Notes: generated from the letters alone by a model not told the origin. Numbered from the stretch's first letter, positions 1 to 44,547 are shown. The stretch is 56,456 nt of DNA from an uncultured Candidatus Saccharibacteria bacterium (GCA_964365185.1 CAYIOP010000004.1:1-56456); one strand, 5' to 3'. Made by a program: numbers and translations.

Positions 1-1
1 A

Positions 2-3000: not shown

Positions 3001-4063
3001 CAAAGTTAACGCCGAATTAATTGATAAATCAGAAATTGCCTCAGTTAGAGTTCGTTCGCCGATTACCTGCAAAACTCTATACGGCATTTGTAATCGATGT
3101 TACGGTTTTAATTTAGGAGATAATCGGCCCATTAAAATCGGGGAAGCGGTCGGCGTTGTCGCCGCTCAATCCATCGGCGAGCCCGGCACGCAGCTTACCA
3201 TGCGTACTTTCCACTCTGGCGGTGTTGCCGGAGTCGACATCACTCATGGTCTGCCCAGAATCGAAGAAATTTTTGAAGCTCGTCCGCCTAAAGGTAAGGC
3301 TATTTTGGCTTATGAGGACGGAGTTGTTCAAAACATCGAAGAAAGGGGAACCCTCCGCGTTCTTTCTTTATCTACCGACAAAAAGAAAGCCACCTCTTCC
3401 AAAAAAACTTCCAAAGCCGCCAAATTTGCCGAATACTCTATTTCGAGTTCATCTTCATTTTTGGTTAAGATTGGCGATAGCGTTAAGAAGGGAGATCAAA
3501 TTTCAAACGGCAACCTCGACCTAAAAGAACTGCTGGAATTTAGAGGTAAGCACGAGGTTGAGAAATATATCGTGAGCGAAGTTCAGAAAATTTATTTCTC
3601 CGAAGGCGCTTCTATTAACAATAAACATATCGAAGTTATCGTAAAACAAATGTTCTCTCGGGTTAAAATTAAAGACGCGGGCGACGCTCCCGATCTGGTT
3701 ATCGGTGAAATTATTGAAAAACCAAAATTTCTGGAAATTAATCGCGAACTAAAAAAACAAAATCACGAACCCGCTAAGGCCGAGCAACTTTTAATGGGCA
3801 TTACTCAAGTGGCTCTCTCTACCGAAAGTTTCTTGTCGTCCGCTTCCTTCCAAGACACCGCTCGAGTTTTGGTTAGGTCGGCCATTGAGTCCCGTATCGA
3901 TCCTCTTCGGGGCCTCAAGGAAAACGTTATTATTGGTCGCCTTATTCCTACCGCCCACTCAAAAGAAGTTGAGGCATTAGCCAATCGAGTAGCGGCAGAA
4001 TCACCAGAAGAAGAAAAAACCCTAGAGGTCGCCACGCTTGACGAATCCGCCAAAGTCAGCTAA
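2..4063 (+). CDS. rpoC: RNA polymerase beta subunit C-terminal end (5' partial, open to the window edge) fused in frame to a full-length beta-prime subunit
   Basis: Frame 2 is open from nt 2. The first ~110 aa are the RpoB C-terminus ([75 protein letters not shown]). It runs without a stop into the RpoC N-terminus ([24 protein letters not shown], Zn motif [30 protein letters not shown]). Confidence 0.92.
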
Positions 4064-4557: not shown

Positions 4558-5037
4558 ATGAACCTAAACAAAGTTTTTATCATCGGCCGATTAACCGCCG
4601 ACCTTCAACTTAAAACCACGCCCAGTGGCCAGTCGGTTTCAAGTTTCAGTGTTGCCACCAATCGAGTTTGGAATGATAAATCCGGCGCCAAGCAAGAAAG
4701 CACCGAGTTTCACAATGTGGTGGTTTGGGGTAAGCAGGCCGAAGTGGCCAGTCAATTTTTAACTAAAGGCAGTTTGGTTATGATTGAGGGCCATCTTCAA
4801 ACTCGTTCTTGGACCGATAAACAAAGTCAAACAAGAAAAACCACCGAGATTGTCTGTGAGCGCATTCAATTTGGGCCTAGGTCTAGCGGGGGAGGCAATA
4901 GGGCTGATTCATCTTTTTCTAAACCCACCAATCCTTCCCAAAATCCAAATATCGATGTTCCTCCCCAAGAAGATATTCCAGTAATCGATCTTGAGGGCGA
5001 CAAAGAAGACATCAAACCCGAAGACATCCCATTTTAG
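4558..5037 (+). CDS. ssb: single-stranded DNA-binding protein
   Basis: OB-fold motifs ([39 protein letters not shown]), a Gly/Pro-rich tail and an acidic C-terminal tip (EDIPF). Confidence 0.9.
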
Positions 5038-5050
5038 ATATTTGTTAATC

Positions 5051-5476
5051 ATGGCCAAAAAAATAAAAACAATTTTAAAAATTCAATTAGAGGCAGGCAA
5101 AGCCAATCCTGCGCCTCCAGTTGGGACGGCTTTGGGTCCGCATGGCATTAACTTGCAGGAATTCTGTAAGCAGTTTAACGATGCCACCAAAGATATGACC
5201 GGCGATGTGGTGCCGGCTGAAATTACTATTTATGAAGATAGAAGTTTTAGTTTTGTTTTAAAAACTCCTCCTGCCTCGGACTTGCTTAAAAAAGCCGCGG
5301 GCATTGAAAAAGGTTCCGGCACTACTCCTAAAAGTAAAGCCGGCAAGGTCACCCGTGCCGACATCAAAAGAATCGCCGAGCGCAAGATGCCCGACTTAAA
5401 TGCCCACACTCTCGAAGCCGCTGAAAAGATTATTGAAGGCACAGCCAGAAGTATGGGAATCGACGTAGTCAATTAA
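5051..5476 (+). CDS. rplK: 50S ribosomal protein L11
   Basis: [44 protein letters not shown] use the ATG at 5051 rather than the longer ORF start at 4991. Confidence 0.95.
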
Positions 5477-5531
5477 CCCATACTCCTCGGAAAGGGCGAT
5501 GGGAAAACTTCCGTTAGTTAGTTATCTCAAC

Positions 5532-5553
5532 ATAGCCATTCGTGGCTATTTTT
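5532..5553 (+). terminator. intrinsic terminator after rplK
   Basis: ATAGCCA-TTCG-TGGCTAT hairpin followed by a T-run. Confidence 0.6.
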
Positions 5554-5569
5554 GTTATCCTAGAATTTC

Positions 5570-5701
5570 TACCCCGTAGGAAATAGCGAAAAAATTCCTA
5601 AATATTTTTGAGCTGTATAATCTATATAAGCATTGAGTAAAGCAAAATAATAAAAAAGTCGTTTGTGAATTAACAAAAAATATTTAATTTCCTACGGGGT
5701 A
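5570..5701. repeat. 15-bp perfect inverted repeat pair (TACCCCGTAGGAAAT / ATTTCCTACGGGGTA) bracketing 102 bp
   Basis: Arms at 5570-5584 and 5687-5701. The right arm ends 5 nt before the tmk ATG. A TATAAT (5616-5621) lies inside. Confidence 0.7.
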
Positions 5702-5705
5702 TATT

Positions 5706-6302
5706 ATGGCCACAGGTAAATTCATTGTTTTTGAAGGTCCGGATGGTTCCGGACAAACCACTCAAGTCAATTTATTAAAAGAAGCTCTTGAGAAAAAAGG
5801 ATTAGACGTCGTAGCCACCAAAGAACCTACCGAAAATAGTCCTGTCAGTCGCAAAATTCATTCAATTTTAAAACACGAAATTGAATCATCTCCCCAGAAA
5901 CTCCAAGAACTTTTTGTTGAAGATAGACGTCATCATGTTCAAAACTTCATTCTACCTAATCTCGAAAAATCAAAAATTGTCATTTCAGATCGCTATTTTT
6001 TATCCACTCTGGCCTACGGCTCTTTAAGCTGCGACTTGGGCTGGCTCACTACTCTTAACCAGAATTTTCCTAATCCCAATATCACTTTTATTCTGGATGT
6101 TAATCCCGAAATTTGTATAGAGCGAATCATCAAAAGAGGTAAAGCCGCTCAATTCTTTGAAACCAAAAAGAAACTAACTCGAATTATGGAAAATTACCGC
6201 AATCTTGCGCCGAAATTTAAAAATACGCGTCTTATAAATGGCGAAGGGTCTATCAAAGAAGTTCATCAAAAAATTGTTGAGATAGTATCAAAAATCCTCT
6301 AA
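5706..6302 (+). CDS. tmk: thymidylate (dTMP) kinase
   Basis: P-loop FEGPDGSGQTTQ and the DRY motif (ISDRYFLSTLAYG). Confidence 0.9.
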   Translation: MATGKFIVFEGPDGSGQTTQVNLLKEALEKKGLDVVATKEPTENSPVSRKIHSILKHEIESSPQKLQELFVEDRRHHVQNFILPNLEKSKIVISDRYFLSTLAYGSLSCDLGWLTTLNQNFPNPNITFILDVNPEICIERIIKRGKAAQFFETKKKLTRIMENYRNLAPKFKNTRLINGEGSIKEVHQKIVEIVSKIL

Positions 6303-31461: not shown

Positions 31462-34400
31462 ATGAAGAGTAATAAAATCGCCAATATCTTAGTTTTAACA
31501 ACTCTATTCGCCGGATTTTGGCCCTTTTCAGTCATTCCGGCTGAAATAGATAAAACTCATTCTACCCCTTATCAAATCCCAGAAGATGTTAAAATTTTGG
31601 ATTCGGTTAAGATTGATTCTTCTAAAATTTATCGTCCCTCTCCCGAAGAAAAATCTGATTTCAAATTAGAACCCGCCAAAATTAAAATTCTTGAGACCAA
31701 AAATAAAACCACTGATTCAAGAGACGTTATTCCAGATCCGGTTTCGGCTGGCCTTCATTTCTTAGTACAAAATCAAAATGCCGACGGTTCTTTTAGTAAT
31801 AACTCCAAGACAAGATTAATTAATACTTTTGCCGCCACTGAAATTTTAGGCAATTTAAACCAGAAAATCTCTGGCTCTGACCAACCTTTAATAAATCAAA
31901 GCTATCCTTCTTCGACTAATTGGCTGAACTTTTCTTTTCCAGAAAACAATGACTATCTCGCTCAAAAAATTTCGGTCTTAGCTGAAGCCAGCGAAGAAAT
32001 GTCCGACCCAATGGATTATCTCGCGGGCCAAATCAATGAAACCAATCTCGCTTTTGGTTTCAAAAAACAATTTTCCCCAGATGTTATTACCACAGCCCGA
32101 GTTTTAAAAGCCATTGCCAAAACCAATTATCAAGATGCCGGCTCTGACTCGCAGTTTACTCTCAAAGCCGCTCTGCTCTATATTTTAAATTCCCAAAGTT
32201 TAGATGGCGGCTGGCCAGAAATTGACGGTGAAACCAGCTCTATTTATGCCACTAACATCATTCTTGAAGCCCTAAGGCCCTATCAAAACATCACCATCGA
32301 AGGCCTTCCCGGTGGCGACACAATTCTTCCAACTAAAATCAATCTCGGCTTTAATTTCCTAAAAAGTAATCAATATTTCTGGGGTTCCTGGCAGGATAAC
32401 TTGCTTCTCACCGCCTTATCCTTAAATAATTTTCTGTCTTACGCTAAAACCCCTACTTATTATGATTCCGCTCTTACTTATCTAAAAAATTCCCAGAGTC
32501 CGGACGGCAGCTTTGATTCGGGAAATATTTTTACTAGCTCCAAGGCCGTAAAATCGCTTGCCTATCCAGACGTTGCCGTGGTCGATATCCAAAATCCGCT
32601 TTCAGTTCCCAATCCTTCAGCTGTTATTTGGGCCACCATCGAAAATAAGGGCTATCTTAACTCCGATGTTTTAAATCTCTCTGCCGCGCCTAGCGCCTTC
32701 TCCTTATTTGTTGACGGCGAAGAAGTTAATCTCGATTTTAGCGACGCTCCGCCGACCGCTATTTTTGAACCCGGCTCGCAAGTTATTTTCCAAATCGAAT
32801 TTTCCAAGCCGATTTTTGGCGAACACGACCTTAAATTTAAAATCAATCACCCCGGACCGGAATTTTATAAAAACAATAACGAGCTTACCAAACCCATTGC
32901 CTTTGACAGCGAACAATTTAGCGGACCCCAACCTCCGCCTTGGCTTGGCGCTTCTTCTGGCTCTGGTCCTGGTGAGATTACTTTAAGATGGCAGCAATCA
33001 AACGACCCTAATCGAGATCACTACGTTCTCTATGGTAGTTCCGCGAGCGGTCTCTACAATCCCGATATTCCTCTCTACATTTTCCCACCCGGAAATTTCG
33101 CCGGCATCACTTTTTATTTTGATAATCCAGCCGACTACGATAAACAATTTTATTTCACAATTGTCTCATTTGACTCAAGCGGCAACCGCGGCAACTATTC
33201 CAAAGAATCCTATGCTAAGGCCTACGCTGACCCGGAAAATTATCGCGGCACCGTATCTGGTCGGGTTTTCGATAAAGTCACCAATCAAAATCTTGCGGAT
33301 GTTGAACTAAGCTTTTTCCTTATCAATGAGTGGTATACCGATGCCTCGGGTAATTATTCTATCAATTATTACCCGGGTTTTTATCTTAATTCGGTTTATA
33401 AAACCGGTTATTATTCAGATGTTAGTGTTTTAGAGATTAAAACCCAAACCACGGATTCACGCGATTTCGGACTCGATCCGCTTTCAGATTATACTCCGCC
33501 CGCGCCGGTCTCTAATTTGCGCGGCGTCGCTTCTGATGGTCAAATTCGTCTGGACTGGGACGCCTATTCGCCTCCGCCCGACTTTAAAGAATTTAGAATT
33601 TATCGCTCGAATACATATTTCTATTCTCAATACTCCAGTCAACTTTTTGTCGTTGTTTCCAGTTCAGCCGCCACTTCATTTACGGATAACACAATTTCAA
33701 ATGGGATCAATTATTACTACGCCGTTGTCCCAAGGGATACCGCCGGCGGTGAGCCATCCATGCCCTCCCTTGGTCCTTTCAAAGGCAATTCGCGTCCGGT
33801 TGTCTCTAATTTTAGCGCCTCGCAAAGCGACCAATCAGTTAATCTTTACTATGATCTCTCTGATCAAGAAGGGGACTTAACTTTTGCGGCTTTCGAATTT
33901 TGGAACGGTTCCAATTGGCAGGAAATTTCAGATGCCATTGGCGAAGGGTCATCTACTCCCGGCAGCGGTAAACTTGGCATTTGGAATGCTAAGTCAGAAT
34001 TTCCCAATTTCTCCGGCGAATCCAAAATTAGAATCAAAACCTGGAACGATGGCTATTTTGCCGATGCCGCCTATTTCGAATCCAACCCTTTTAACCTCGA
34101 TACCTTAAACCCAACCTCGCCGACAGTTAATAATTATTTTTCTCCCACCAACCAGTTCCATAAAACTTTCTCCGGTACTAAAGAGGCCAACTCTTCCGTT
34201 CTTTTTAATAATCAAACGGTCGCTGAACTATCCTCAAGCACCGATTGGTTCTACGCCGCCACACTCCAAGAAGGTGAAAATAATTTTACGGTTACCTCCA
34301 AGGACGCTTTTAAAAACCAAAGCGTCCCAACTCAGATCAACATCACTTACGATCCTAACTCTTACACCTGTGGCGATGTTGACAATAGCGGCGCCATCGA

Positions 34401-34653
34401 CGTCTCCGACATCGTCTACATCATCCAGTATATTTTCAACGACGGCCCCGCGCCCTCGCCGCTTATCTCGGCTGATGTGGATTTAAGCGGATCGGTTGAC
34501 GTAAGCGACGCGGTCTATTTCGTGCAATATATTTTTAACGATGGTCCAGCTCCTTGCGAGCCAAACACCTCTTTCAATCGCGAACCGTATCTTAATTGGA
34601 ATCTTGACCAAATCAATAATTATTTAAACGAACAAAAAATTAAAAATCGATGA
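31462..34653 (+). CDS. large secreted protein with prenyltransferase/terpene-cyclase-like repeats, FN3-like and carboxypeptidase-regulatory-like domains, and a C-terminal dockerin
   Basis: Signal-like N-terminus. Repeats QNQNADGSF, NSQSLDGGWPE, NSQSPDGSFDS. Also GTVSGRVFDKVTNQNLADV. Two dockerin repeats (GDVDNSGAIDVSDIVYIIQYIFNDGPAP and ADVDLSGSVDVSDAVYFVQYIFNDGPAP). Confidence 0.8.
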   Translation: MKSNKIANILVLTTLFAGFWPFSVIPAEIDKTHSTPYQIPEDVKILDSVKIDSSKIYRPSPEEKSDFKLEPAKIKILETKNKTTDSRDVIPDPVSAGLHFLVQNQNADGSFSNNSKTRLINTFAATEILGNLNQKISGSDQPLINQSYPSSTNWLNFSFPENNDYLAQKISVLAEASEEMSDPMDYLAGQINETNLAFGFKKQFSPDVITTARVLKAIAKTNYQDAGSDSQFTLKAALLYILNSQSLDGGWPEIDGETSSIYATNIILEALRPYQNITIEGLPGGDTILPTKINLGFNFLKSNQYFWGSWQDNLLLTALSLNNFLSYAKTPTYYDSALTYLKNSQSPDGSFDSGNIFTSSKAVKSLAYPDVAVVDIQNPLSVPNPSAVIWATIENKGYLNSDVLNLSAAPSAFSLFVDGEEVNLDFSDAPPTAIFEPGSQVIFQIEFSKPIFGEHDLKFKINHPGPEFYKNNNELTKPIAFDSEQFSGPQPPPWLGASSGSGPGEITLRWQQSNDPNRDHYVLYGSSASGLYNPDIPLYIFPPGNFAGITFYFDNPADYDKQFYFTIVSFDSSGNRGNYSKESYAKAYADPENYRGTVSGRVFDKVTNQNLADVELSFFLINEWYTDASGNYSINYYPGFYLNSVYKTGYYSDVSVLEIKTQTTDSRDFGLDPLSDYTPPAPVSNLRGVASDGQIRLDWDAYSPPPDFKEFRIYRSNTYFYSQYSSQLFVVVSSSAATSFTDNTISNGINYYYAVVPRDTAGGEPSMPSLGPFKGNSRPVVSNFSASQSDQSVNLYYDLSDQEGDLTFAAFEFWNGSNWQEISDAIGEGSSTPGSGKLGIWNAKSEFPNFSGESKIRIKTWNDGYFADAAYFESNPFNLDTLNPTSPTVNNYFSPTNQFHKTFSGTKEANSSVLFNNQTVAELSSSTDWFYAATLQEGENNFTVTSKDAFKNQSVPTQINITYDPNSYTCGDVDNSGAIDVSDIVYIIQYIFNDGPAPSPLISADVDLSGSVDVSDAVYFVQYIFNDGPAPCEPNTSFNREPYLNWNLDQINNYLNEQKIKNR

Positions 34654-37600
34654 ATAAATCTAAAATTATTATTGTAGGTTTTCTTATTTTGTCGTTTTTC
34701 GGGTCGAATTCGGGCCTGGCCGCCTTGGCTCCCGCGCCCGGCAATGATTCTGAAATAATTTCCAAGCCAGCTCCGCTCGCTCCCGAGGCGCCTGAACCTA
34801 AAACAATAATAGCGCCACCCTCATCCGGCGGCGGAATTATTCAACCTTCGGCTCCGGCCAAAACTTCGCTTCCAGCTCCGGATTCAAAAACGCTGAAGTC
34901 CAATTTAGATAAGATAAACGAAAATTTAGCGTCTTTCGTCGCCTCCAAATCCACGAAGGCCTCTCTGTCTTTAATTCAGGAGCTTGAGAAAAATTTAAGC
35001 CAAATTCAATCCGATTTAATCGGATTAAAACAAGAGCTCGAATCTAAAAATCTGTCATCTAAAATTATCGCTCGCCTCGACGACTTCCAAACCCGTTATC
35101 AAAACCAAATCACGCCGATTATAAATGGATTAAAAAAGGGCAATGACGCGGAAAAAGAAATCAAAAGTTTTCTCCAAAAACCAGAAGTAAAAATCGAAAA
35201 TCCCACTCCGTTTCGCGCCACCGAGTTTAAAGGCGAAATAAAAAAATTGCCGGTCTCCGAGTTTCCCAAAACCGCCCTGGCTCAAAAAGGGGATTTTATC
35301 AAAAACTTAGTCAATTCAACAGTTCTTAAATTCAAAGAGGTTTTCAACTCTTCAGATTCGCCGGCTTCGGCTTCTGATTCACCCGAACCATCTTCCGCTT
35401 CTTCGCCGGCCGAGCCGCGAACGCCGAATGTCTCGCCGCCGGCTCCTGGCGACACCCTCGAGGCCGAAGAAATTCAATTTACCGAAAATATCCGCAACCT
35501 GGCGACTGCTTTAGAAAACGACCCCTTAACCATTTTTAACTATGTGGCAAATAACGTTGATTACGTTCCCTACTATGGTTCCAAAAAAGGCGCTGATTCC
35601 ACTTTGCTTGAAAAACTGGGCAATGATTTTGACCAGGCCTCGCTTTTGATTGGTCTTCTAAGGGTCGGGAATGGACAAGGTCAAAATCAAACTCCAGCTC
35701 GTTATCGCCAGGCAACCGTCAAACTCGATGTCGGCCGGGTAATGGATTTATTGGGAGTTGAAGATCCAATCGTGGCCGCCACAATTTTTGAAAAAACCGG
35801 CGTGCCCTATATTTTATACGCCGATCAAAATCAAACCCCGCAATTTTTTGTTTTGGAATTAACTTATGTCGAGGCCTACGTGGACTACGACTACACTCGT
35901 GGAATAATCCAGGGCAATCCCGGCGCCACCAAACGTTGGGTGCCGCTTATGCCGTTCCTCGCCAAATTTTACAAAAGCCAATATCTAAATGTTTTAGACG
36001 AGATGAATTTTGATATTTCCGTTTTTTATGAAAACTATTTAAACGGCGGCTACGGCGAACAAAAACCCATCGCGGCGCTAAAAGGCGAAATTCAGAATTA
36101 TATTTCCGCGAACCATCCGGATTTAACTCCCGAAGACACTTATGTCCAAACCTATCGAAGTGAAGAGGATTTGGAATTTTTGCCGCTCACTTTGCCGGTT
36201 GAAGTGGTCGGCGACTCGGGCGCGTTTAGCGCCGCGCCGGAAAATCTAAAACATCGACTTGAATTTTCGGTTGAATCGGGCGACGGCAGCCAAGGTCTTC
36301 TTAGTTACATTTCAAATGTCTCTGGTATTTCAAATAAAGAACTTACTTTGGAATATGTCGCCGCCACTCCTGAAGACCAAGCCGTGATTGACAGTTTTCC
36401 CACCATTTACGATGTGGTGCCGCTCTCGCTGGTGAATGTAAAACCAGTGATTAAAGTAAACGGCGAAATTCGCTCGGGCGGGGGAGCGGCTAGTCCCGAA
36501 GTTCAGATGGGCCGAGAAAATAAACTTAAAATCATTTTCAAGTCGCCGAGTAAAAATATCGGTTATCCGGTTTTGGAAAAAATTGCCGAGACCGTCGAAA
36601 AGGCCAATATTGCTGGCAATGTCGAGGCCATTGCGATAAACACCGATCACATCGCGCCGCCCGAAATTCGCCCGAGCGCGGACACACAAAGTTTATCCGC
36701 TGTCGCCAATCAAAAACTTTATAAAACCGCCGAAAATTTCTTGTATCGTTTGCAATCATCTCACGACGAACTCTCCCGTATCACCGGCGGGCGCTTCACT
36801 AATTCCGCCACCCGCGCTGTTGTTTTCAACGGCCTCGAAGTTAGCTATCAAAGCGGCGAGCCCTATTCTTTTTCTTGGCAGGGCCTTCGCATCGACGCTT
36901 CTTCTTTAATTAACTACTACTCCTATTTTTCTCAAAATCCCGAGCATCATCAAAAAGAGTTTATGCATGTTTTCGGCCTCGAGGCCTCGCAGGATGAAGC
37001 CGATATTTTTGAGGATGACTACAATATAGAATCCATCTCTACCGTAAAGGGCCTAAAGCTCATCAATCAAAACCAAATCCCGGGAATTCAGGTGAAAAAA
37101 ATTACTTCCGCAAATGAAAGTGAAATCAATGCGCTTGGTATTTCCGACTCCACTAAAACCAAACTTAGAAACGCGGTTCATCAGGGCCATATTGTCTATG
37201 TGCCGAGCGCTAACTTTATTTATCAATCTTGGAATGGACTCATCTATATCAATATTGACCCCGCGACCGGATTTGGCGAATACATTATCGGTGAAGGATT
37301 AAACGGGGGATATACCGTGGAACAGTGGCCTGACGGCTGGCAACATTTCTGGCGAGATCATTTGATTTATAACCTTACGGCGACAATTCAAAGTCCTATC
37401 GCCGGACAGATTTTTATGCAGGACGATCTTATTCCTTGGCAGGCCTATTATCGAGGAGATACTTCTGTTCCAGGGCTACCAACCGAATGGTATGACATAG
37501 TTAATTTAGATTTTTCTAACGCGCCCTCTGGTCCAGCCACTCTAAAAAGCGGGTATGGCACAAACCAAAGCGTGCAAATTATTTTAAAGGGAGACACCGT

Positions 37601-38213
37601 CCCCTCCACTATTGATTGTACAACGAATTTAGAAGGTAGAATTATTCCCGAAGTATCCGGAGAAATTTCTGAAGAAATGCACTTGCCTCTTTGGATAAGA
37701 GAAAATTCAGGAATATTTCAATATCGATTAAATGATCAGGTTCAGTATAATAAACAGGATGGAATAGAAACTCACCCGACTTCAAGAGAATACTTCGCCG
37801 AGCTTATAACTCCAGAATCAACTTATCTTAATGTTAACAATCCTTGGATTGATCCAGAAACCGGCAAATATTGGAACATGTCTATCAGATTCGGAGCTTT
37901 TAATAAATCTGCTTTAAGTAATGATCACGAAAAGTATTACATGAATATGAGGTGGGCCTATTTAGACATTCCCATACCTCAAAGATATGAAGAGGTTAAA
38001 TGGTATTTTGGGAAAAAGGTTTGGATTAAAAATCCAGCGACTAGGAAGGCTGTGGTCGGCGGTATACTGGATTATGGACCCTCGCCAAATGAGGGTGCAG
38101 GTGGAGCATCATTGGAAACTTTACGTGCTATTGGTGCAAAGCATGATGATATTGTGGAGTTTTGCTGGGCAGTCGACCAAAGCGCCCCTTATGGGAGTGT
38201 AGTAAGTTACTAA
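34650..38213 (+). CDS. large secreted transglutaminase-like protein with a possible RlpA/DPBB-like C-terminal domain
   Basis: The start overlaps the upstream stop (ATGA). Signal-like N-terminus and Pro/Ser/Ala linkers. Transglutaminase-core-like segment NYVANNVDYVPYYGSKKGADSTLLEKLGNDFDQASLLIGLLRV. The C-terminus KKVWIKNPATRKAVVGGILDYGPSP..ASLETLRAIG resembles RlpA. Confidence 0.75.
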   Translation: MNKSKIIIVGFLILSFFGSNSGLAALAPAPGNDSEIISKPAPLAPEAPEPKTIIAPPSSGGGIIQPSAPAKTSLPAPDSKTLKSNLDKINENLASFVASKSTKASLSLIQELEKNLSQIQSDLIGLKQELESKNLSSKIIARLDDFQTRYQNQITPIINGLKKGNDAEKEIKSFLQKPEVKIENPTPFRATEFKGEIKKLPVSEFPKTALAQKGDFIKNLVNSTVLKFKEVFNSSDSPASASDSPEPSSASSPAEPRTPNVSPPAPGDTLEAEEIQFTENIRNLATALENDPLTIFNYVANNVDYVPYYGSKKGADSTLLEKLGNDFDQASLLIGLLRVGNGQGQNQTPARYRQATVKLDVGRVMDLLGVEDPIVAATIFEKTGVPYILYADQNQTPQFFVLELTYVEAYVDYDYTRGIIQGNPGATKRWVPLMPFLAKFYKSQYLNVLDEMNFDISVFYENYLNGGYGEQKPIAALKGEIQNYISANHPDLTPEDTYVQTYRSEEDLEFLPLTLPVEVVGDSGAFSAAPENLKHRLEFSVESGDGSQGLLSYISNVSGISNKELTLEYVAATPEDQAVIDSFPTIYDVVPLSLVNVKPVIKVNGEIRSGGGAASPEVQMGRENKLKIIFKSPSKNIGYPVLEKIAETVEKANIAGNVEAIAINTDHIAPPEIRPSADTQSLSAVANQKLYKTAENFLYRLQSSHDELSRITGGRFTNSATRAVVFNGLEVSYQSGEPYSFSWQGLRIDASSLINYYSYFSQNPEHHQKEFMHVFGLEASQDEADIFEDDYNIESISTVKGLKLINQNQIPGIQVKKITSANESEINALGISDSTKTKLRNAVHQGHIVYVPSANFIYQSWNGLIYINIDPATGFGEYIIGEGLNGGYTVEQWPDGWQHFWRDHLIYNLTATIQSPIAGQIFMQDDLIPWQAYYRGDTSVPGLPTEWYDIVNLDFSNAPSGPATLKSGYGTNQSVQIILKGDTVPSTIDCTTNLEGRIIPEVSGEISEEMHLPLWIRENSGIFQYRLNDQVQYNKQDGIETHPTSREYFAELITPESTYLNVNNPWIDPETGKYWNMSIRFGAFNKSALSNDHEKYYMNMRWAYLDIPIPQRYEEVKWYFGKKVWIKNPATRKAVVGGILDYGPSPNEGAGGASLETLRAIGAKHDDIVEFCWAVDQSAPYGSVVSY

Positions 38214-38222
38214 ATTAATAAT

Positions 38223-39035
38223 ATGAAAAAACCTACCTTTGTATTAGGTATTTTACTAACAGTATTACTTATTTTTATTTTCGCTAGCAAAAAACCTAGT
38301 CCTGACCCTAGTGAAAACGCTAATAATCAAATTGTTGAAATAGCACTACAAAAGATTTTTGAAACACAAAATATTAATAAAATATCAGATTTTCAGTACA
38401 TAATAAATAATAAAATTTATTACGCAAGAACCATTGATGATTTAGATAAAAATGGATCGCGAGAGATAGTAGTTATGGAACCGAAAATTGAATCAGGGAA
38501 AATTTATAGATTCTATAGAAAAAACGGCGATAATTTTCAATTCATTGGAGAAGAGGGTTCTGTTATTTGGTATTTTGAAGAAGAAAAAAATAGAGAAATA
38601 GAGCTGATTTTAAAAGACGTAACTGGAGATGGTACATCCGAGATATTTGTCCCATTCGAACAGAACGCTAAAGGTAATAAGTGGTATTCTGTGTTTAGAT
38701 TCTCAAGCATAGAATCAAAACTTGAAAACTTGTTCTTTAACCACTATTCAGAAAATAAGCCGTCTCGAGTAATAAGTTTTGATAACTTAAATTATCAAAA
38801 TAATCGATTAATCGCAGATTGGCACGGAACTTACGAAAGAGGGAAATCGTCTTATCGTCTAGAGAATAATATTTTTATTAGTGAAAAAACTATAGGATTA
38901 TTTGGTCAACCTCGCAGTGAGAATTATGAATATAGAGAAATTAATGAAAGTGGGGACGTAACCTATCAAGAAAAACGAACTGGTAGCGTATGGGTAGATT
39001 CTATAGAAAGAGAAAAATTACCACAGGGTAATTAA
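38223..39035 (+). CDS. secreted or lipoprotein-like hypothetical with FG-GAP/VCBS-like Ca-binding motifs
   Basis: N-terminal TM or signal. DLDKNGSREIVV and DVTGDGTSEIFV. Confidence 0.55.
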   Translation: MKKPTFVLGILLTVLLIFIFASKKPSPDPSENANNQIVEIALQKIFETQNINKISDFQYIINNKIYYARTIDDLDKNGSREIVVMEPKIESGKIYRFYRKNGDNFQFIGEEGSVIWYFEEEKNREIELILKDVTGDGTSEIFVPFEQNAKGNKWYSVFRFSSIESKLENLFFNHYSENKPSRVISFDNLNYQNNRLIADWHGTYERGKSSYRLENNIFISEKTIGLFGQPRSENYEYREINESGDVTYQEKRTGSVWVDSIEREKLPQGN

Positions 39036-39106
39036 TAACAAAAAGGTCGCATTATTAATTTGTCGCTCAATAAAATAAAAACCAATCAAAACACAATAAA
39101 AAAATC

Positions 39107-39745
39107 ATGCGCAAAATTATTTTTCTATCAACAATTATTTTAGCATCGGCCATTTTTATCTCTTCGGTCAGCGCCGAAACTTTCACTAAAGATTTGAAAT
39201 TTGGTATGCAAGCCGACCAAGACATTCGTCTTCTCCAGGAATTCTTGAAAAGCGAAAATCTCTATACTGGACCCGTCACAGGTAATTTCTTCAACTTAAC
39301 TCAAAAAGCCGTTATTGATTTTCAAAAGCGAGAAGGAATTGTACCCGCTTCTGGTTATTTAGGACCAAAAACACGAGCTAAAATAAACATTTCCCCAATT
39401 CAAAAAGATGTCTCAATTGGGCTAAATCAACCGACATCGTTTAAACTCCAATCCACCGAAACTCCAACCTCAATCTCCATCCAAAAAATCGAGACCAATC
39501 CTTCTGCTTTACAGACACAACTTAATTCGCTCCTGGAACAGGTAAAAATACTTCAGCAGCAAGTTCAAGCCCAACAATCAATCAATCCACAAAATCTAAC
39601 CGTTCAGCAGGGCCAATCGATGTATATTCCGGTCTCAACACCGCAACCGACCATTCAAAACCCGCCTCCAAGCCAACCTCAAACGCCCACTTCCTCAACC
39701 CGTCCATTCGGCACTGTCGTTCCGGGGAATATTATTATTCTTTAA
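39107..39745 (+). CDS. secreted peptidoglycan-binding domain protein
   Basis: Signal peptide, a PG_binding_1-like segment (IRLLQEFLKSENLYTGPVTGNFFNLTQKAVIDFQKREGI..GYLGPKT), and a Q/P-rich tail. Confidence 0.75.
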   Translation: MRKIIFLSTIILASAIFISSVSAETFTKDLKFGMQADQDIRLLQEFLKSENLYTGPVTGNFFNLTQKAVIDFQKREGIVPASGYLGPKTRAKINISPIQKDVSIGLNQPTSFKLQSTETPTSISIQKIETNPSALQTQLNSLLEQVKILQQQVQAQQSINPQNLTVQQGQSMYIPVSTPQPTIQNPPPSQPQTPTSSTRPFGTVVPGNIIIL

Positions 39746-39792
39746 TAAATCCGAAATTACGAAATTCGCTTAATCCCTAAAAACTTTCTTCG

Positions 39793-40101
39793 ATGGAAGT
39801 TGAATCAAAAGAAAAAATCTTTGAGCGGCGGAAAGAAATAGAGAAGGAGCTTTTGGAGATGCTTAAAGAAAGCGGTAGTGATTTTGGAATTGAGGATATT
39901 AAAGACGTTATTTATAACGAGAAGGACTCTGATGATATGACGAAGGTCGTCGCGATGTTTGATCGCGGCGGCGATGCTTCGGAATTGAGCAATATTCTTG
40001 AATTAGTAACTGACGCTTGGAATTATTTTCCGCACAAAATTATCGGCGGCATATCTCCGGCCGAGAAATTGCTTGAATATAAGAAAGAAGAAAAGGGGTG
40101 A
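39793..40101 (+). CDS. acidic hypothetical protein (102 aa)
   Basis: Intact ORF. I recognise no family. Confidence 0.45.
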   Translation: MEVESKEKIFERRKEIEKELLEMLKESGSDFGIEDIKDVIYNEKDSDDMTKVVAMFDRGGDASELSNILELVTDAWNYFPHKIIGGISPAEKLLEYKKEEKG

Positions 40102-40136
40102 TGAGTAGGTATTATGTAGCCGCCTTTTTTGTTTGA

Positions 40137-40172
40137 AAACATTCTCACATTCTTAAGAATGTGAGAATGTTT
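40137..40172. repeat. 36-nt perfect palindrome (AAACATTCTCACATTCTT|AAGAATGTGAGAATGTTT)
   Basis: Same arm family as 31350-31406 (AACATTCnnACATTCT). It sits at the left edge of the LexA-methylase module. Confidence 0.75.
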
Positions 40173-40305
40173 CGGTACGGAGTTGGTTGACACCCCATTA
40201 AAACAGAGTAAATTAAGAATGAAATTAAAAGTAATCCTTCGTCGCTAATGGCTCCTCAGGACGATTGATTTTCTGAATTCATTCTTTATTAACAAAATCT
40301 AATCG

Positions 40306-40596
40306 ATGAATAAAACCGCTGAGATTATAAAATCAATTGCGTTGCTTTTAATACCGCTCGTTATTGGCATTGGCGGGTGGGTGGTTCAGACCTCGATTCA
40401 ACACTCAAATCTTGACCGCGATTATGTTCAAATCGCGATTTCAATTTTGCAAGATAAGGACTCAAGCCAAGATCTTCGGGCTTGGGCCACGGATATTTTA
40501 AATAAAAAATCTCCCGTTCCGCTTAAGCAAATACTGGTTAATGATTTAATAATGGGTTCAAGCTCTCTGCCTTCTATGATTATTCTTTCAAAGTAA
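40306..40596 (+). CDS. small membrane-anchored hypothetical (96 aa)
   Basis: N-terminal TM. It lies 4 nt upstream of the next ORF, so probably the same operon. Confidence 0.45.
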   Translation: MNKTAEIIKSIALLLIPLVIGIGGWVVQTSIQHSNLDRDYVQIAISILQDKDSSQDLRAWATDILNKKSPVPLKQILVNDLIMGSSSLPSMIILSK

Positions 40597-40600
40597 TAAT

Positions 40601-41575
40601 ATGAATCAAAATTCCTCAATAGGAATTGATTACGGTGCTTTACTAAAGAAATACCCTTGGGTAGTTGAGCGTGATCAGGATTGTATTTTAAGTCCAGATA
40701 GCGATGGCCTTCTGTGCGGTTTATTTATGTCTCATTATTTAGGGTGGAAGATTCGCGGATTTTATGACGGCAAAGTTCTTGTTGTTGAAGAAGATATTAA
40801 TCATAAAAAATGTATTTTCTTAGACATGGAAATATTTCGTTCAGGTATTCGTAGCGTTGGACAGCATATGGTTATGTACGACAAGGCAGATTTGCCACTA
40901 AATTGGAATAATTTTGAAAACTCTATAGCGGCGAATAATTTAAGAAATTATGATTTCAAGAATGATTTCAAATCCAAATATCCGTTTGGAACAATTCATA
41001 TTTTACTTTCTATTCTAGGTCAAAATCGCAGCATTTCAATTGCAAAAAAAGCAGTAAGTCCGCTGTTATATACTGATGGGACTTTCAAGAATCAATTTAA
41101 TTACCCAGAAAATTGTTTGGGTTGGTTGGATTTCTTGGGCGTAGATAGTGCAAACAATCCCCTCCAAAAAGTATTTTTAGATCGGCATTATTCAACATAT
41201 GAATTGATGATTGAGTTGAAGGATTTATTTTCAAAAATCAACGTTATCGGTGGAGGAAAGCGTGGTGGCGACAAGATTAAGATTTCCGATTCTCGGGGGA
41301 ATATAACCAATATCGATTCTCACACGCATCAATTAAAAACAACTACAAAAACGCAGGCCGAAACATTTTTGAGAATGCTTGCGGATAAAACAGGATGGGC
41401 ATTTACACCTACTCATTGGTCTTGGGGTCCTTATCGGATCGCTACCTTTAAAAAGGGTAGCGTAAAGCCAGGAAAAGCACGCTATAATTCACTCCTTGCT
41501 CAAAACCCCATATCTTTAGCGATTATTAGCAGGAACAGTATTGAATTTACAATTGACAGCAAAAAAGTTTTTTAA
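40601..41575 (+). CDS. hypothetical 324-aa protein, positional candidate for the nuclease/effector partner of the adjacent methyltransferase
   Basis: I recognise no family. It is convergent with the methylase gene and their stop codons overlap (41572-41575). Confidence 0.55.
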   Translation: MNQNSSIGIDYGALLKKYPWVVERDQDCILSPDSDGLLCGLFMSHYLGWKIRGFYDGKVLVVEEDINHKKCIFLDMEIFRSGIRSVGQHMVMYDKADLPLNWNNFENSIAANNLRNYDFKNDFKSKYPFGTIHILLSILGQNRSISIAKKAVSPLLYTDGTFKNQFNYPENCLGWLDFLGVDSANNPLQKVFLDRHYSTYELMIELKDLFSKINVIGGGKRGGDKIKISDSRGNITNIDSHTHQLKTTTKTQAETFLRMLADKTGWAFTPTHWSWGPYRIATFKKGSVKPGKARYNSLLAQNPISLAIISRNSIEFTIDSKKVF

Positions 41576-43023
41576 AACATTCTACTTGATGTTTGAGCGC
41601 ACTCTTCTTTTATCCGTTTTTCGGCAATAGCGCAGTAGTCAGGCGCGATGTCAATTCCAATATATTTGTAGCCTAAATTTTTTGCCGCAACGGCAGTTGT
41701 GCCACTTCCAATAAAAGGATCTAATACAACTCCGTTTTTTGGAGTAAAACAACTAATAAAATCATATGGAAGTTGATTTGGAAAAGTGGCCGGGTGCTGA
41801 TGTTTTAGGCGGCTTCCGTCGCCAGCTGTTAGGTATTCCCAAATAGTTCCGCGACATTTCATTAGGTTAATTTTAATAGAGCGTGTATCTATACGAATTC
41901 CATTTGTAAGACGGGTGCCTCCCCCAGTCATTGTTTTGCCGCCGTGTTTTGAAGGAATTTTTAGATGTTCTTTGTTGAAATGTTGTGGTCTCTCACCTTT
42001 TAAAAATATCGGAACATACTCATGATCAACACGGAATCTTTTATTCCACCACGCGCCCTCTGCTCCATATTTACGATAAATCACGGTTTCGAAAAGCTTG
42101 AAGCCAAAACTATCACACCAATCAACTATTGTCCTAAAAGAGGTTAGCGATTTTCCAAAGTTTTTTGTTTGATCTTGAATTACCATAGCCACCACTCCGC
42201 CGTTTTTTAGAACCCGATATATTTCTTTGCCAGATGCGTGTAGATCAAGGGAAAATCCTTTGTAATCACGAACCGCATCGTACGGAGGAGAGGTAATCAC
42301 TATGTCTATTGAATTTGAAGGAAACTTTTTCATTACTTCCACTGCGTCACCGCATATAATTTTATTCAGTGGAAGATCATTGTATTTCTCTTGTTTTTTA
42401 TATTCTGGTAATTCGATTGTAGAATTTCCTTCCTCCCGAATCACATCAATCACTATTCCCTGTATCGCAACATCCCGACCATTTCGGAATATGAGTGGCT
42501 CCATATTTTTATTGGCTGGTTGTAGGCGTATATATCCTCGCTCTTTATAAAATTTCTTAAGCGTCGCTCCGTGATTATCTATCAAAGCAACTACTTTTTG
42601 GCCATTCTCAGCGGTCTCTTGTTGACGCACTAAAACAATATCGCCATCGTTGATATTTTCATCAACCATACTATTTCCAACTACTCGGAGAGCATAAATT
42701 TCAGATGAGGCGGGGACTTTACTTTTTGGTACCGCAATCGTTTCTCTATCTTGAATTGCTTCAATAGGTTGTCCGGCGGAAATAGTACCTAAAAGTGGAA
42801 TCTTCATCATTGTCTCGTTGCCTAAGGCCTTGATAGATCGCGGTTTGTTTTCTCCTTTCGATAAATATCCCAAGTCACGGAGTTTGGAGACATGGAAATG
42901 GGCAGTTGAAACAGAGGCAAGTTTGAATTTCTTGCGTATCTCGTGAAGCGTGGGGGAGTACCCTTTTCGCCCTTGATAATCAGTTATAAAATCCAGGACT
43001 TGTTTTTGCTTTTTTGTTACCAT
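41572..43023 (-). CDS. LexA-type repressor (wHTH + S24 self-cleaving peptidase) fused to a beta-class N4/N6 DNA methyltransferase
   Basis: N-terminal part: KQKQVLDFI..GYSPTLHEI..HVSKLRDLGYL, cleavage site LLGTISAGQP, Ser in VVGNSMVD, Lys in ATLKKF. C-terminal part: motif IV IVITSPPYD then motif I VLDPFIGSGTTAVAA. Confidence 0.85.
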   Translation of the reverse strand: MVTKKQKQVLDFITDYQGRKGYSPTLHEIRKKFKLASVSTAHFHVSKLRDLGYLSKGENKPRSIKALGNETMMKIPLLGTISAGQPIEAIQDRETIAVPKSKVPASSEIYALRVVGNSMVDENINDGDIVLVRQQETAENGQKVVALIDNHGATLKKFYKERGYIRLQPANKNMEPLIFRNGRDVAIQGIVIDVIREEGNSTIELPEYKKQEKYNDLPLNKIICGDAVEVMKKFPSNSIDIVITSPPYDAVRDYKGFSLDLHASGKEIYRVLKNGGVVAMVIQDQTKNFGKSLTSFRTIVDWCDSFGFKLFETVIYRKYGAEGAWWNKRFRVDHEYVPIFLKGERPQHFNKEHLKIPSKHGGKTMTGGGTRLTNGIRIDTRSIKINLMKCRGTIWEYLTAGDGSRLKHQHPATFPNQLPYDFISCFTPKNGVVLDPFIGSGTTAVAAKNLGYKYIGIDIAPDYCAIAEKRIKEECAQTSSRMF

Positions 43024-43112
43024 ATTGATATTATAGAAAATAAATAGAAAGTGTAAAAGTAGTAGTTATCCACAAAATAGAGTAAATTAAAACCATATTA
43101 GCATGAATCTTT

Positions 43113-43829
43113 ATGAATAGTAGGTCTAAAAAACCAGGAGGTATTAAGAATAATCTAATTCAATTAGCACAAGATTTTGCAATAGAATTTCCTAAAATTT
43201 TAGATCCAGCGATTATAAATGATCCAATTATTCCTCTTACTAAAATACTACAGAATTTAGCCACCAGAACAATTTCAAGATTTTTAAGTGATTACAGGAG
43301 TCAAAAAGAATTAAATAAAGTGAAAACCAAATCTTTTGTTACTAATAAACCAAAAGCTTCCTTAATTGATCTCATCAAATTTATTGGTAAAGAAATTCCA
43401 GATGAAGATCGAATGAAAATTCTCAAATCCATTTTTTTCTCTGGTATAAGCAAAAATGCAACTGAACAAGACGAAATATTTGCTTATGAATTTTTACAAA
43501 CTGCAAAAAGATTAAATGCGACAGAAATTTTAATACTAAAAGCAAATTTTGAAATAGCGCAAAACAAATTTTCAGAAGCAGTTTTGAAGCAAGGAATAGA
43601 ACATGGTAAACGAGGTCGCAAAGCTTGGAGAAGAGTCATAGCTCAGCAAATGGGCTATGGCGATATGGATTCAGTTGTTTTAAAATACGAAAATAATTTA
43701 GAATCTTTAGGATTAATATCATCAAGATATGAAATGGATCGTTTGCAACATGAATTTGAACCAACATTAAAATTTCGTCTTACTGAAATGGGGTATAAAT
43801 TTTGTGAATTTATGACGCAATATGAATAA
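43113..43829 (+). CDS. hypothetical 238-aa protein, divergent from the LexA-methylase gene
   Basis: Intact ORF sharing an 89-bp intergenic region with 41572-43023. I recognise no family. Confidence 0.55.
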   Translation: MNSRSKKPGGIKNNLIQLAQDFAIEFPKILDPAIINDPIIPLTKILQNLATRTISRFLSDYRSQKELNKVKTKSFVTNKPKASLIDLIKFIGKEIPDEDRMKILKSIFFSGISKNATEQDEIFAYEFLQTAKRLNATEILILKANFEIAQNKFSEAVLKQGIEHGKRGRKAWRRVIAQQMGYGDMDSVVLKYENNLESLGLISSRYEMDRLQHEFEPTLKFRLTEMGYKFCEFMTQYE

Positions 43830-43942
43830 TAACAGCAAATTTAAATCGAAAATTTTAAGTAGTAAGTGTTTACCCCCAACCCCAAACATACTATAATAAA
43901 ACAAAGGTCAGTTTCATTATTTTAAATTTTTTAAAAAAATTT

Positions 43943-44275
43943 ATGTCCAATATACTTTTAGTGATTATTTTTGGGTTTGTAGGCGGAGCAGTTAGGGGAC
44001 TGGTCGGCTATCTTAAATACCGCAGTTCCTATAAAAACACCGCGTTTATGTTTAACTATTTTGCCCTTAGCGTTGGCATCTCGGGCGCGGTGGGGTTAAT
44101 CGCCGCTTGGGTGACCAAGGACTTGGGTATTTCGTTTTTGGGTCTGCCATCAATTACACCGGCTTTGGCCATAGTTATCGGCTACGCAGGCGGCGACTTT
44201 ATCGAAAACCTGTTTAAAATCATCACTGGCAAAACTACGATTTTTGAATTTAAGGTTACCCTGCCCAAAAATTAA
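43943..44275 (+). CDS. hypothetical 3-TM membrane protein
   Basis: Gly-rich hydrophobic helices and a terminator downstream. Confidence 0.5.
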   Translation: MSNILLVIIFGFVGGAVRGLVGYLKYRSSYKNTAFMFNYFALSVGISGAVGLIAAWVTKDLGISFLGLPSITPALAIVIGYAGGDFIENLFKIITGKTTIFEFKVTLPKN

Positions 44276-44298
44276 AATAGAAATATTGATAGGGATAT

Positions 44299-44337
44299 AA
44301 AAAACCGGTCATTCATTTTAGAATACCGGTTTTTTTG
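44299..44337. terminator. bidirectional intrinsic terminator
   Basis: AAAAAACCGGT..ACCGGTTTTTTT, lying between convergent genes. Confidence 0.7.
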
Positions 44338-44352
44338 TTTTGTTTCCGTGGA

Positions 44353-44547
44353 TCACTTTACGCGATTTTTGTTGCCAGATTCAAGCAGTGGTACAAAAAT
44401 TCGCAGAACAAGAAAGGCCACTAGGAACATCGCAACGCCAGTCATTAGAAATGCTTCCGGCGTCGGCATCCCATTTCCCAAAGCGAGCAAGACAACGGAA
44501 ACCACGGTAATGCCAAAACTGTAGAGTAGGGCTTTTTTGGTAGTCAT
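44353..44547 (-). CDS. small 2-TM membrane protein, hypothetical
   Basis: A 64-aa hydrophobic ORF. Confidence 0.4.
   Translation of the reverse strand: MTTKKALLYSFGITVVSVVLLALGNGMPTPEAFLMTGVAMFLVAFLVLRIFVPLLESGNKNRVK

Follow-up and report, generated by a model that had tools for sequence, protein, structure and literature searches.

A LexA–DNA methyltransferase fusion in a candidate type II restriction–modification cassette from Candidatus Saccharibacteria

The DNA analysed here is a 56,456-nucleotide (nt) stretch, hereafter the window, from an uncultured Candidatus Saccharibacteria bacterium (GCA_964365185.1, CAYIOP010000004.1:1-56456). One of its genes, which we call lexA::M (41572–43023, minus strand), encodes a 483-amino-acid (aa) protein in which a LexA repressor, made up of a winged helix–turn–helix (HTH) and an S24 autopeptidase domain, is joined to a beta-class N6_N4 DNA methyltransferase, as matches in Pfam, NCBIfam and PDB indicate. 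A second gene, R324 (40601–41575, plus strand), converges on it and encodes a 324-aa partner of the methylase, a candidate restriction endonuclease. The two genes are flanked by open reading frames (ORFs) of 96 and 238 aa, and an earlier description made from the nucleotide sequence alone, here called the sequence-only reading, had grouped all four as a defence module. Each of the four ORFs lies where that reading had placed it, and LexA and methyltransferase do share one chain. The composition of the module has changed, and we describe below a smaller cassette, the predicted control of its methylase and the relatives that point to its identity.

The LexA–methyltransferase fusion

The N-terminal 200 residues of lexA::M pass the NCBIfam LexA equivalog model TIGR00498 (178 bits; cut-off 111), and crystallised LexA proteins align with the N terminus from end to end, the best of them being PDB 3k2z over residues 2–196 (E = 2.4e-34). 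The winged HTH spans residues 1–65 (42829–43023, minus strand; LexA_DNA_bind, PF01726, residues 3–62, E = 2.7e-12), with its recognition helix, STAHFH, at about residues 39–44. It is followed by the S24 autopeptidase and dimerisation domain at residues 76–192 (42448–42798, minus strand; Peptidase_S24, PF00717, E = 9e-29; PDB 3k2z). This domain contains the predicted autocleavage site Ala83-Gly84 in ISAGQP (42772–42777), the predicted nucleophile Ser118 in GNSMVD (42670–42672) and the predicted general base Lys156 in ATLKKF (42556–42558), all on the minus strand. At 483 aa the product is unlike a stand-alone LexA of about 200 aa.

The additional length is accounted for by the methyltransferase domain, residues 239–469 (41617–42309, minus strand; N6_N4_Mtase, PF01555, E = 2.5e-38), which also matches PADLOC MTase_II (E = 6.7e-44). 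Methylase motif IV, SPPY (residues 245–248, 42280–42291, minus strand; TSPPY 244–248), precedes motif I, the FxGxG S-adenosylmethionine (AdoMet) motif at about residues 437–441, within DPFIGSGTT 435–443 (41695–41721, minus strand). The motifs that the sequence-only reading quoted for both halves are thus present, in the order that it gave for the methylase part. PDB relatives of the methylase part comprise N4-cytosine enzymes (1boo, 8s9n) as well as N6-adenine enzymes (6pbd, 5hek, 1g60), and an N4-cytosine specificity is plausible from the SPPY motif.

In an alignment of 48 fusions that are 46–100% identical, the Ala-Gly site (A and G alike), Ser118, Lys156, SPPY and the AdoMet motif are each retained in 47, so that conservation of the Ser/Lys dyad among homologues, on which the sequence-only reading had made its view depend, is upheld. 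Because these motifs persist while identity in the LexA part falls to about 32%, both halves of the protein look functional.

More than 120 full-length homologues of lexA::M (476–495 aa, 73–100% identity) occur in independent assemblies from several Patescibacteria lineages, including Paceibacterota, Wolfebacteria, Liptonbacteria and Portnoybacteria, and 47 further fusion loci were found in species-representative genomes. An assembly or frameshift artefact is therefore excluded. The proteins are already in public databases, where each is annotated either as LexA only or as methylase only: the NCBI name is ‘transcriptional repressor LexA’, and JGI uses ‘SOS regulatory protein LexA’ or ‘site-specific DNA-methyltransferase’. 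Genomic context was compared across a set of 83 related loci, retrieved with flanks of up to 10 kb and searched by tblastn with all window proteins as queries.

Promoter, predicted operator and DnaA box

The 89-bp intergenic region upstream of lexA::M (43024–43112) holds the best promoter-like site in the interval 39700–44400 (43030–43057, minus strand; 11 of 12 positions), composed of a −35 element TTTACA (43057–43052), a 16-nt spacer and a −10 element TATAAT (43035–43030). This promoter is conserved across loci. Since 6 nt lie between the −10 element and the ATG start codon (43023–43021, minus strand), the lexA::M mRNA is probably leaderless. Overlying the −35 and −10 elements is a direct repeat with an 11-bp period, TTTCTAT-N4-TTTCTAT (43033–43050, minus strand), which is the predicted LexA operator: its first copy (43050–43044) starts 1 nt after the −35 element, and its second (43039–43033) shares 3 nt with the −10 element. 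The repeat has its sole exact match in the window here, with no predicted LexA operator upstream of R324 and no second one anywhere within the 56 kb.

A direct repeat with the same period is present in 45 of the 47 fusion promoters. Across 875 kb of related loci, a generic form of the repeat pattern gives 57 matches, of which 46 fall in fusion promoters and 3 in the promoters of methylases that carry the LexA HTH without S24; the operator is kept in these HTH-only variants, and it is missing at genes for the methylase alone. Its half-site co-varies with the LexA recognition helix, a correlation to which phylogenetic non-independence applies. Among promoters with a detected repeat, helices of the form S-T-A-H-[F/H/Y]-[H/Y] go with the half-site TTC[T/G]AT (27 of 27), those of the form [S/A]-T-[I/V]-H-[Q/E]-H with TTCGG[T/G/C] (12 of 13) and those of the form P-T-[I/V]-x-Q-H with TTTAGG (2 of 2). 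The co-variation makes a good in-silico case for binding of the direct repeat by the fused LexA. Direct-repeat LexA motifs, one of them for Patescibacteria, are mentioned in a passage of PMC7739468.

Eight nt upstream of the −35 element lies a perfect DnaA-box sequence, TTATCCACA (43066–43074, plus strand; on the minus strand TGTGGATAA, 43074–43066), the one copy in the window. Of the 37 exact DnaA boxes in the 47 fusion loci, 29 are located within 160 bp upstream of the fusion, an enrichment of about 230-fold, and a box with at most one mismatch precedes the fusion in 41 of the 47 loci, some of which have two boxes. Genes for the methylase alone have no DnaA box upstream. Because the box does not vary where the HTH and the operator do, we predict that a conserved host factor acts at this site, DnaA being the simplest candidate.

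Architectural variants and the reach of LexA control

The LexA module occurs in several arrangements. Seven related loci encode a LexA winged HTH joined to the methylase without S24 (353–369 aa), with the operator and the DnaA box retained, and five loci have an unfused, diverged LexA-like gene directly upstream of the methylase. In metagenomes, all nine complete ORFs behind this promoter type, among the matches listed, are LexA–methylase fusions, and none is a stand-alone LexA. A 6-kb fragment (L045) carries two different LexA–methylase fusions with different operators (564–3204 and 4992–6299). On the strength of these four observations we argue that the LexA module would be a regulator private to its cassette, in which autoregulation comes from the HTH and S24 adds the property of a removable repressor.

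On the L045 fragment, the fusion at 564–3204 has a direct-repeat operator and an EcoRII-C nuclease downstream, and the one at 4992–6299 is of the window type, lacks the direct repeat and has a palindrome, GGTGTCATTGACACC, upstream; this difference suggests that the operators diverged to avoid cross-talk. The LexA module is also fused to about eight other methylase types, which in metagenomes include a Dam-like D12-class methylase (E = 2.7e-56) and three more N6_N4 types.

The HTH-only loci could also be taken to mean that the LexA part is a DNA-binding and dimerisation module and nothing else, conferring constitutive autorepression as in SsoII-type systems, with RecA-stimulated cleavage having no physiological role. 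These loci do keep operator and DnaA box without S24, and where S24 is present it would supply dimerisation for the methylase; beta-class methylases are often dimeric. Near-invariance of the Ala-Gly site, Ser118 and Lys156 across the whole identity range of the alignment is nevertheless hard to explain without selection for cleavage, and we judge this account to be rather improbable.

A wider role for LexA::M has to be weighed as well: that it is the sole SOS master repressor of a chromosomal regulon (recA, repair genes and small division inhibitors), with the methylase as a passenger. In such a case an R-M (restriction–modification) cassette would have captured lexA, or the reverse, and loss of the cassette would deregulate the SOS response, a form of addiction that is compatible with the cassette reading preferred here. 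The passing of the LexA equivalog model, the NCBI name, the absence of stand-alone LexA among the nine metagenomic ORFs and the direct-repeat motif reported for Patescibacteria in the passage cited above are all in keeping with a master repressor, as is a locus (L132) at which the same operator and DnaA-box design precedes an ORF of about 47 aa. There, at 401–617, a DnaA box, an exact TTTCTATTTATTTTCTATAAT operator with a −10 element and a second DnaA box are followed by the small ORF (MADKQWCLNMAIEIAKEHARGG...), with no lexA::M; this type of LexA may thus have the ORF as another target, whose product is perhaps a small protein induced by damage. By contrast, the LexA module was brought in by an insertion of 2.5 kb, which a close syntenic relative lacks (see below), L045 carries two fusions with different operators, the window has no second operator, and almost no operators lie outside these promoters in the 875 kb of related loci. 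The window, however, offered no classic SOS gene that we could find on which to check the point. We therefore think a sole master repressor unlikely. A search of metagenomes for a regulon by operator pattern was uninformative, the pattern being so AT-rich that 100 of 121 of the matches listed are due to chance.

The convergent partner gene

The stop codons of R324 and lexA::M overlap, as the sequence-only reading had noted, by 4 nt (41572–41575), with nothing that resembles a terminator between the two genes. The same 4-nt overlap is found in three related loci (L001, L080 and L077). R324 is a neighbour of the window-type methylase at 71 of the 73 loci that are informative: it is intact and convergent in 60, intact and in tandem in 2, frameshifted or truncated in 7 and cut by the contig end in 2, and it is absent from the remaining 2; in 4 more loci a contig end leaves its status open. 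The linkage persists where the methylase has no LexA part, in Kazan, Berkelbacteria, WOR-3, Bacteroidota, Chitinivibrionia, Pacearchaeota and Altarchaeum, and a methylase and partner that stay together across bacterial phyla and archaea behave as a mobile M–R pair. Across the related loci the methylase is 65–90% conserved and R324 31–81%.

The R324 family is large, with 549 clusters at 50% identity, and two of its members are joined to other domains: P0309 is a natural single-chain fusion of N6_N4_Mtase and R324, and P0282 a fusion of HTH_3 and R324. A conserved HTH_3 gene, about 73 aa in length, precedes R324 by 2–26 nt in about 25 loci, a controller-like arrangement by analogy with the controller (C) proteins of type II systems. 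Seven copies of R324 are degraded, and such decay is as expected of a toxic restriction gene.

The AlphaFold2 (AF2) model of R324 is confident (predicted local distance difference test, pLDDT, 90.5; predicted template modelling score, pTM, 0.91). R324 has no match in Pfam, NCBIfam, PADLOC or PDB sequences and no significant Foldseek match in PDB or BFVD, which agrees with the sequence-only reading's remark that the ORF belonged to no family it recognised. As no nuclease fold can be recognised in it, R324 is named here as the cassette's candidate nuclease from its conserved linkage and context alone.

A DHH/RecJ-like phosphoesterase was considered for R324 and rejected: none of 44 family members matches Pfam DHH, even at E ≤ 10, the N-terminal domain, modelled separately, has no DHH protein in its 50 best PDB matches, which are generic alpha/beta folds only, and a whole-chain search of PDB structures was negative. 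The sole support is an enrichment of DHH proteins among insignificant BFVD matches (E = 0.16–1.7), an unconfirmed lead. By eye, the stretches SPDxDG, FLDME, GQH, YTDGTFKN and GGG resemble DHH-type motifs, likewise an unconfirmed lead, and D56, D75 and E77 resemble a BamHI-like D...DxE arrangement, also by eye only.

One locus (L003, 7707–9021) has a different neighbour: downstream of a LexA–methylase fusion that is 82% identical to the window's, the place of R324 is taken by an HTH_3 gene together with one for a reverse transcriptase of 332 aa (RVT_1, E = 6e-9), and a C5 methylase and a Vsr gene adjoin this pair. The locus looks like a defence island with an orphaned methylase. R324 itself has no match in annotated plasmids or phages, and viral contigs carry the methylase domain alone, never a LexA–methylase fusion. 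A prophage or plasmid context for the window's cassette was rejected, as the window consists of housekeeping genes.

Limits and insertion of the cassette

The extent of the cassette emerges from a contig (JBFOMN010000539.1, L090) that is collinear with the window and shares with it genes for sigma-70 and AlaS, the 96-aa ORF (67% identity, E = 4e-47), the 238-aa ORF (70%), a 111-aa ORF, a Glu/Leu dehydrogenase, a 501-aa ORF and ThiF. There, only 5 nt separate the homologues of the 96-aa and 238-aa ORFs, and neither R324 nor lexA::M lies between these. By this comparison, positions 40597–43112 of the window (2,516 bp) are an insertion of exactly R324, lexA::M and the 89-bp promoter region. Its patchy occurrence across Patescibacteria, other bacterial phyla and archaea suggests that the cassette is mobile and was acquired horizontally.

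The outer ORFs consequently belong to the host chromosome. Neither is found by tblastn in any of the 83 related loci, so the check on gene-neighbourhood conservation that accompanied the sequence-only reading comes out divided: R324 is kept with the methylase, and the 96-aa and 238-aa ORFs (the latter at 43113–43829) are not. That reading would have made one four-gene defence module of the 96-aa ORF, R324, LexA–methylase and the 238-aa ORF, starting from a palindrome and sharing the 89-bp control region. Beyond the physical adjacency of the genes in the window, it could draw on a weak match of the 238-aa ORF to Abi_alpha, below the Pfam cut-off, and on a homologue of this ORF in a type I R-M operon (L091). 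Membership of the two outer ORFs is refuted by their absence from all related loci and their adjacency in the cassette-free L090, and the palindrome precedes the ancestral 96-aa gene; we give the four-gene module next to no credence.

The palindrome (40137–40172) is, as claimed, a perfect 36-nt repeat (18+18, no loop, AT-rich). It does not mark the beginning of the module: 134 nt separate it from the 96-aa ORF downstream and about 425 nt from the true edge of the cassette, and a promoter-like site for the 96-aa gene (TTGACA-16-TAAATT, 40187–40214) follows it closely. It could be an operator or a terminator, and it is unrelated to the cassette.

R324 begins 4 nt after the host's 96-aa ORF and is probably transcribed by readthrough from the promoter of the 96-aa gene. 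The window's cassette no longer has the HTH_3 controller gene found ahead of R324 in many relatives.

Related cassettes

The most telling point for an R-M identity comes from sister cassettes, in which this LexA module, together with its promoter, accompanies other methylases and other partner genes. In L080 (LexA part 86% identical to the window), a different N6_N4 methylase (31% identical) faces a convergent 203-aa ORF with a 4-nt stop overlap, and a C-like gene is present upstream that is nearly identical to those of R324 cassettes. L081 (LexA 67%) combines another SPPY-type methylase with an Endonuclease_7/His-Me finger nuclease (E = 1.7e-16) and an upstream C-like gene, and L077 (LexA 70%) a DPPF-type methylase with a convergent 228-aa ORF, no C-like gene being seen. 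In the non-window-type fusion of L045, a permuted N6_N4 methylase is accompanied by an EcoRII-C restriction-endonuclease domain (E = 1.3e-22) on the same strand, again with no C-like gene seen. From these cases the general layout would be a DnaA box and operator, then lexA::M, converging on an R gene that is optionally preceded by a C gene, and the M–R core seems to have been exchanged between conserved regulatory ends. The suggestion that the 324-aa ORF occupies the position of a restriction enzyme gains from several sides: its constancy as the partner, the natural methylase–R324 fusion, the loci with HTH_3 genes and the EcoRII-C and Endonuclease_7 partners of the sister cassettes.

At L105 (2328–6270), a fusion of LexA with a Dam-like (D12-class) methylase has behind it another methylase-like gene (352 aa, DPPY) and a 462-aa ORF in convergent orientation; the layout recalls DpnII-type systems with their two methylases.

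Of the 4-bp palindromes, GATC shows the strongest depletion, with observed-to-expected ratios of 0.52 in the window, 0.62 in pooled loci (L004–L083) and 0.99 in the cassette-free L090. The ratios overlap between carrier and non-carrier loci, the cassette's own sequence shows no depletion and systems that target GATC are frequent; the depletion may hint at the specificity of this or another resident R-M system and is a lead only.

Other features of the window

The 238-aa ORF belongs to a small family of 55 clusters, confined to Patescibacteria, and its weak Abi_alpha match falls short of the Pfam cut-off. The homologue in L091 (5001–5753) sits inside the type I R-M operon, between hsdM with an M23 peptidase gene on one side and hsdS on the other. 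The family may itself be defence-related, though it lies outside this cassette.

Between alaS and the 96-aa ORF, about 10 kb of the window (31462–39745) are absent from L090 and constitute a second lineage-specific insertion. This segment encodes two giant proteins, one of 1063 aa with cyclase-like repeats and a dockerin domain and one of 1187 aa with a transglutaminase core, along with a peptidoglycan-binding protein and an unannotated ORF of 270 aa. On the other side of the cassette, a 110-aa membrane protein (43943–44275) has a weak, sub-threshold match to a phage holin (LydA-like); its 82% identity to a counterpart in the syntenic L090 indicates an ancestral chromosomal gene and not one of phage derivation.

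At the start of the window (1–4063), rpoB runs in frame into rpoC without a stop codon, so that RpoB domains 6 and 7 (C-terminal) and then RpoC domain 1 are encoded in one ORF. This is a fused rpoBC; the contig L092, also from Patescibacteria, has rpoB and rpoC as distinct genes.

Discussion

Taken together, we consider it probable, with appreciable room for doubt, that 40597–43112 is a compact, horizontally acquired type II R-M cassette in which LexA::M autorepresses, RecA-stimulated cleavage de-represses and R324 is the cognate nuclease or effector. In this scheme LexA::M would dimerise through S24, bind the direct-repeat operator over its own −35 and −10 elements and repress its own synthesis, a step suggested by where the operator lies and by how it co-varies with the recognition helix. 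DNA damage would give rise to RecA filaments, upon which S24 would cut Ala83-Gly84, free the DNA-binding domain and open the promoter; the conserved cleavage site and Ser/Lys dyad are what lead us to this step. The damage could include breaks made by R324 at sites left unmethylated after repair, after recombination or when methylase levels drop. More methylase would follow, and stronger convergent transcription, which could reach R324 because the stop codons overlap with no terminator, would reduce the expression of R324. On balance, SOS induction would tip the system towards modification, in what would amount to restriction alleviation of a type II kind. More speculatively, the DnaA box upstream of the −35 element may act as a second input that reports replication status.

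Several points weigh against this scheme. R324 has no recognisable nuclease fold or motif in Pfam, NCBIfam, PADLOC, PDB or Foldseek searches; the window's cassette has no controller gene; the DnaA box is recognised by sequence identity only; and on L132 (401–617) the same operator stands before a small, unrelated ORF. The fusion could also be the cell's general SOS repressor, as discussed above. Finally, if the S24–methylase fragment were degraded after cleavage, the outcome would be the opposite, a loss of modification.

The last of these points leads to a different function for the same parts, a suicide or abortive-infection switch: damage or phage infection would cause LexA::M to cleave itself, the methylase fragment would be degraded, and R324 would destroy chromosome and phage together. 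Type II R-M systems do kill on loss of methylation and induce SOS (PMC3874152), and the cleavage apparatus is conserved. LexA fragments are degraded after cleavage in Escherichia coli. Set against this, cleavage would remove only the 83-residue DNA-binding part and leave the methylase domain whole, and it would also de-repress the promoter and so yield new protein. The HTH-only and unfused variants work without a switch, and ordinary DNA damage would be lethal, which seems costly for so widespread a cassette. The weak Abi_alpha match is irrelevant as evidence, as the 238-aa ORF is outside the cassette. We regard a suicide switch as very doubtful.

For the preferred reading, an R-M cassette with a LexA-controlled methylase, precedents exist for methylase autorepression by an N-terminal HTH, for C proteins and for SOS induction by unbalanced R-M (PMC3874152). 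M.SsoII, M.Ecl18kI, M.EcoRII and M.ScrFIA are type II methyltransferases that autorepress through an N-terminal HTH (PMC3874152). SsoII-type systems and lexA::M have in common a DNA-binding domain at the N terminus of the modification enzyme, an operator (predicted here) at its own promoter and a purpose, the balance between methylase and nuclease. They differ in that the regulatory part here is a full LexA with S24, an Ala-Gly site and a Ser/Lys dyad, which to judge from its motifs would in principle be removable by RecA. Furthermore, the methylase is an amino-methyltransferase of the N6_N4 or D12 class rather than a C5 enzyme, lexA::M and R324 are convergent whereas the SsoII-type R gene is divergent and shares the regulatory region, and a direct-repeat operator is combined with a DnaA box, unlike in SsoII-type systems.

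Canonical LexA (TIGR00498; PDB 3k2z, 1jhh) has the same domain order, cleavage site, dyad and, in silico here, operator over its own promoter; lexA::M departs from it in the 270-residue C-terminal DNA methyltransferase, in its location inside a mobile R-M cassette and in the occurrence of copies with different operators on one fragment (L045). The C-protein-controlled type II systems, such as PvuII and Esp1396I, resemble the roughly 25 related cassettes in which a small HTH_3 gene lies directly upstream of the nuclease gene, convergent with the methylase, whereas the window's cassette lacks a C gene. Cassettes that do have one combine it with the predicted LexA control of the methylase and so carry two separate regulators, one at either end.

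In type I R-M systems, damage-induced restriction alleviation operates through degradation of HsdR by ClpXP (PMC4231737, PMC12707154). The outcome proposed here is the same, a shift after damage from restriction to modification that would protect unmodified repair sites. The routes differ, with proteolysis of the restriction subunit in type I systems and, in our proposal, transcriptional de-repression through self-cleavage of a fused repressor. A 2025 review of R-M never mentions LexA and presents restriction alleviation as known only for type I, by proteolysis. Searches of the full-text literature and of R-M reviews, which did not cover the primary study of the Patescibacteria SOS network, returned no description of a LexA–methylase fusion, in line with the sequence-only reading's statement that it was aware of no established account of this wiring. 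What is known is thus a type II R-M system with an autoregulatory methylase; what is apparently new is a complete self-cleaving LexA as the regulator, recurring with many methylase families and with a DnaA box travelling along.

These results allow a bolder joint proposal, which we offer tentatively and would not expect to hold in full: LexA and DnaA box would form a portable control cartridge that has been fused afresh, repeatedly, to many type II R-M methylases and gives Patescibacteria restriction alleviation coupled to SOS and replication; many or most of the ‘LexA’ proteins of the lineage, and perhaps its inferred LexA motif, would belong to R-M and not to SOS; and R324 would represent an endonuclease fold not seen before.

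Type II R-M systems are dangerous to their host, and the protection of new, unmethylated repair DNA is understood only for type I systems. If the proposed reading is true, a methylase whose repressor comes off in response to the universal signal of DNA damage would offer type II systems a solution that is simple and self-contained, and would be a new use of LexA self-cleavage, beyond the SOS regulon and prophage repressors. R324, with its large family, confident predicted structure and lack of any known relative, makes a good candidate for a new nuclease fold, and the conserved DnaA box offers a testable link between replication initiation and methylase supply. For annotation, hundreds of Patescibacteria proteins named ‘transcriptional repressor LexA’ are R-M methylases, and reconstructions of the SOS network in this group, which is very large and uncultured, may rest partly on R-M cassettes.

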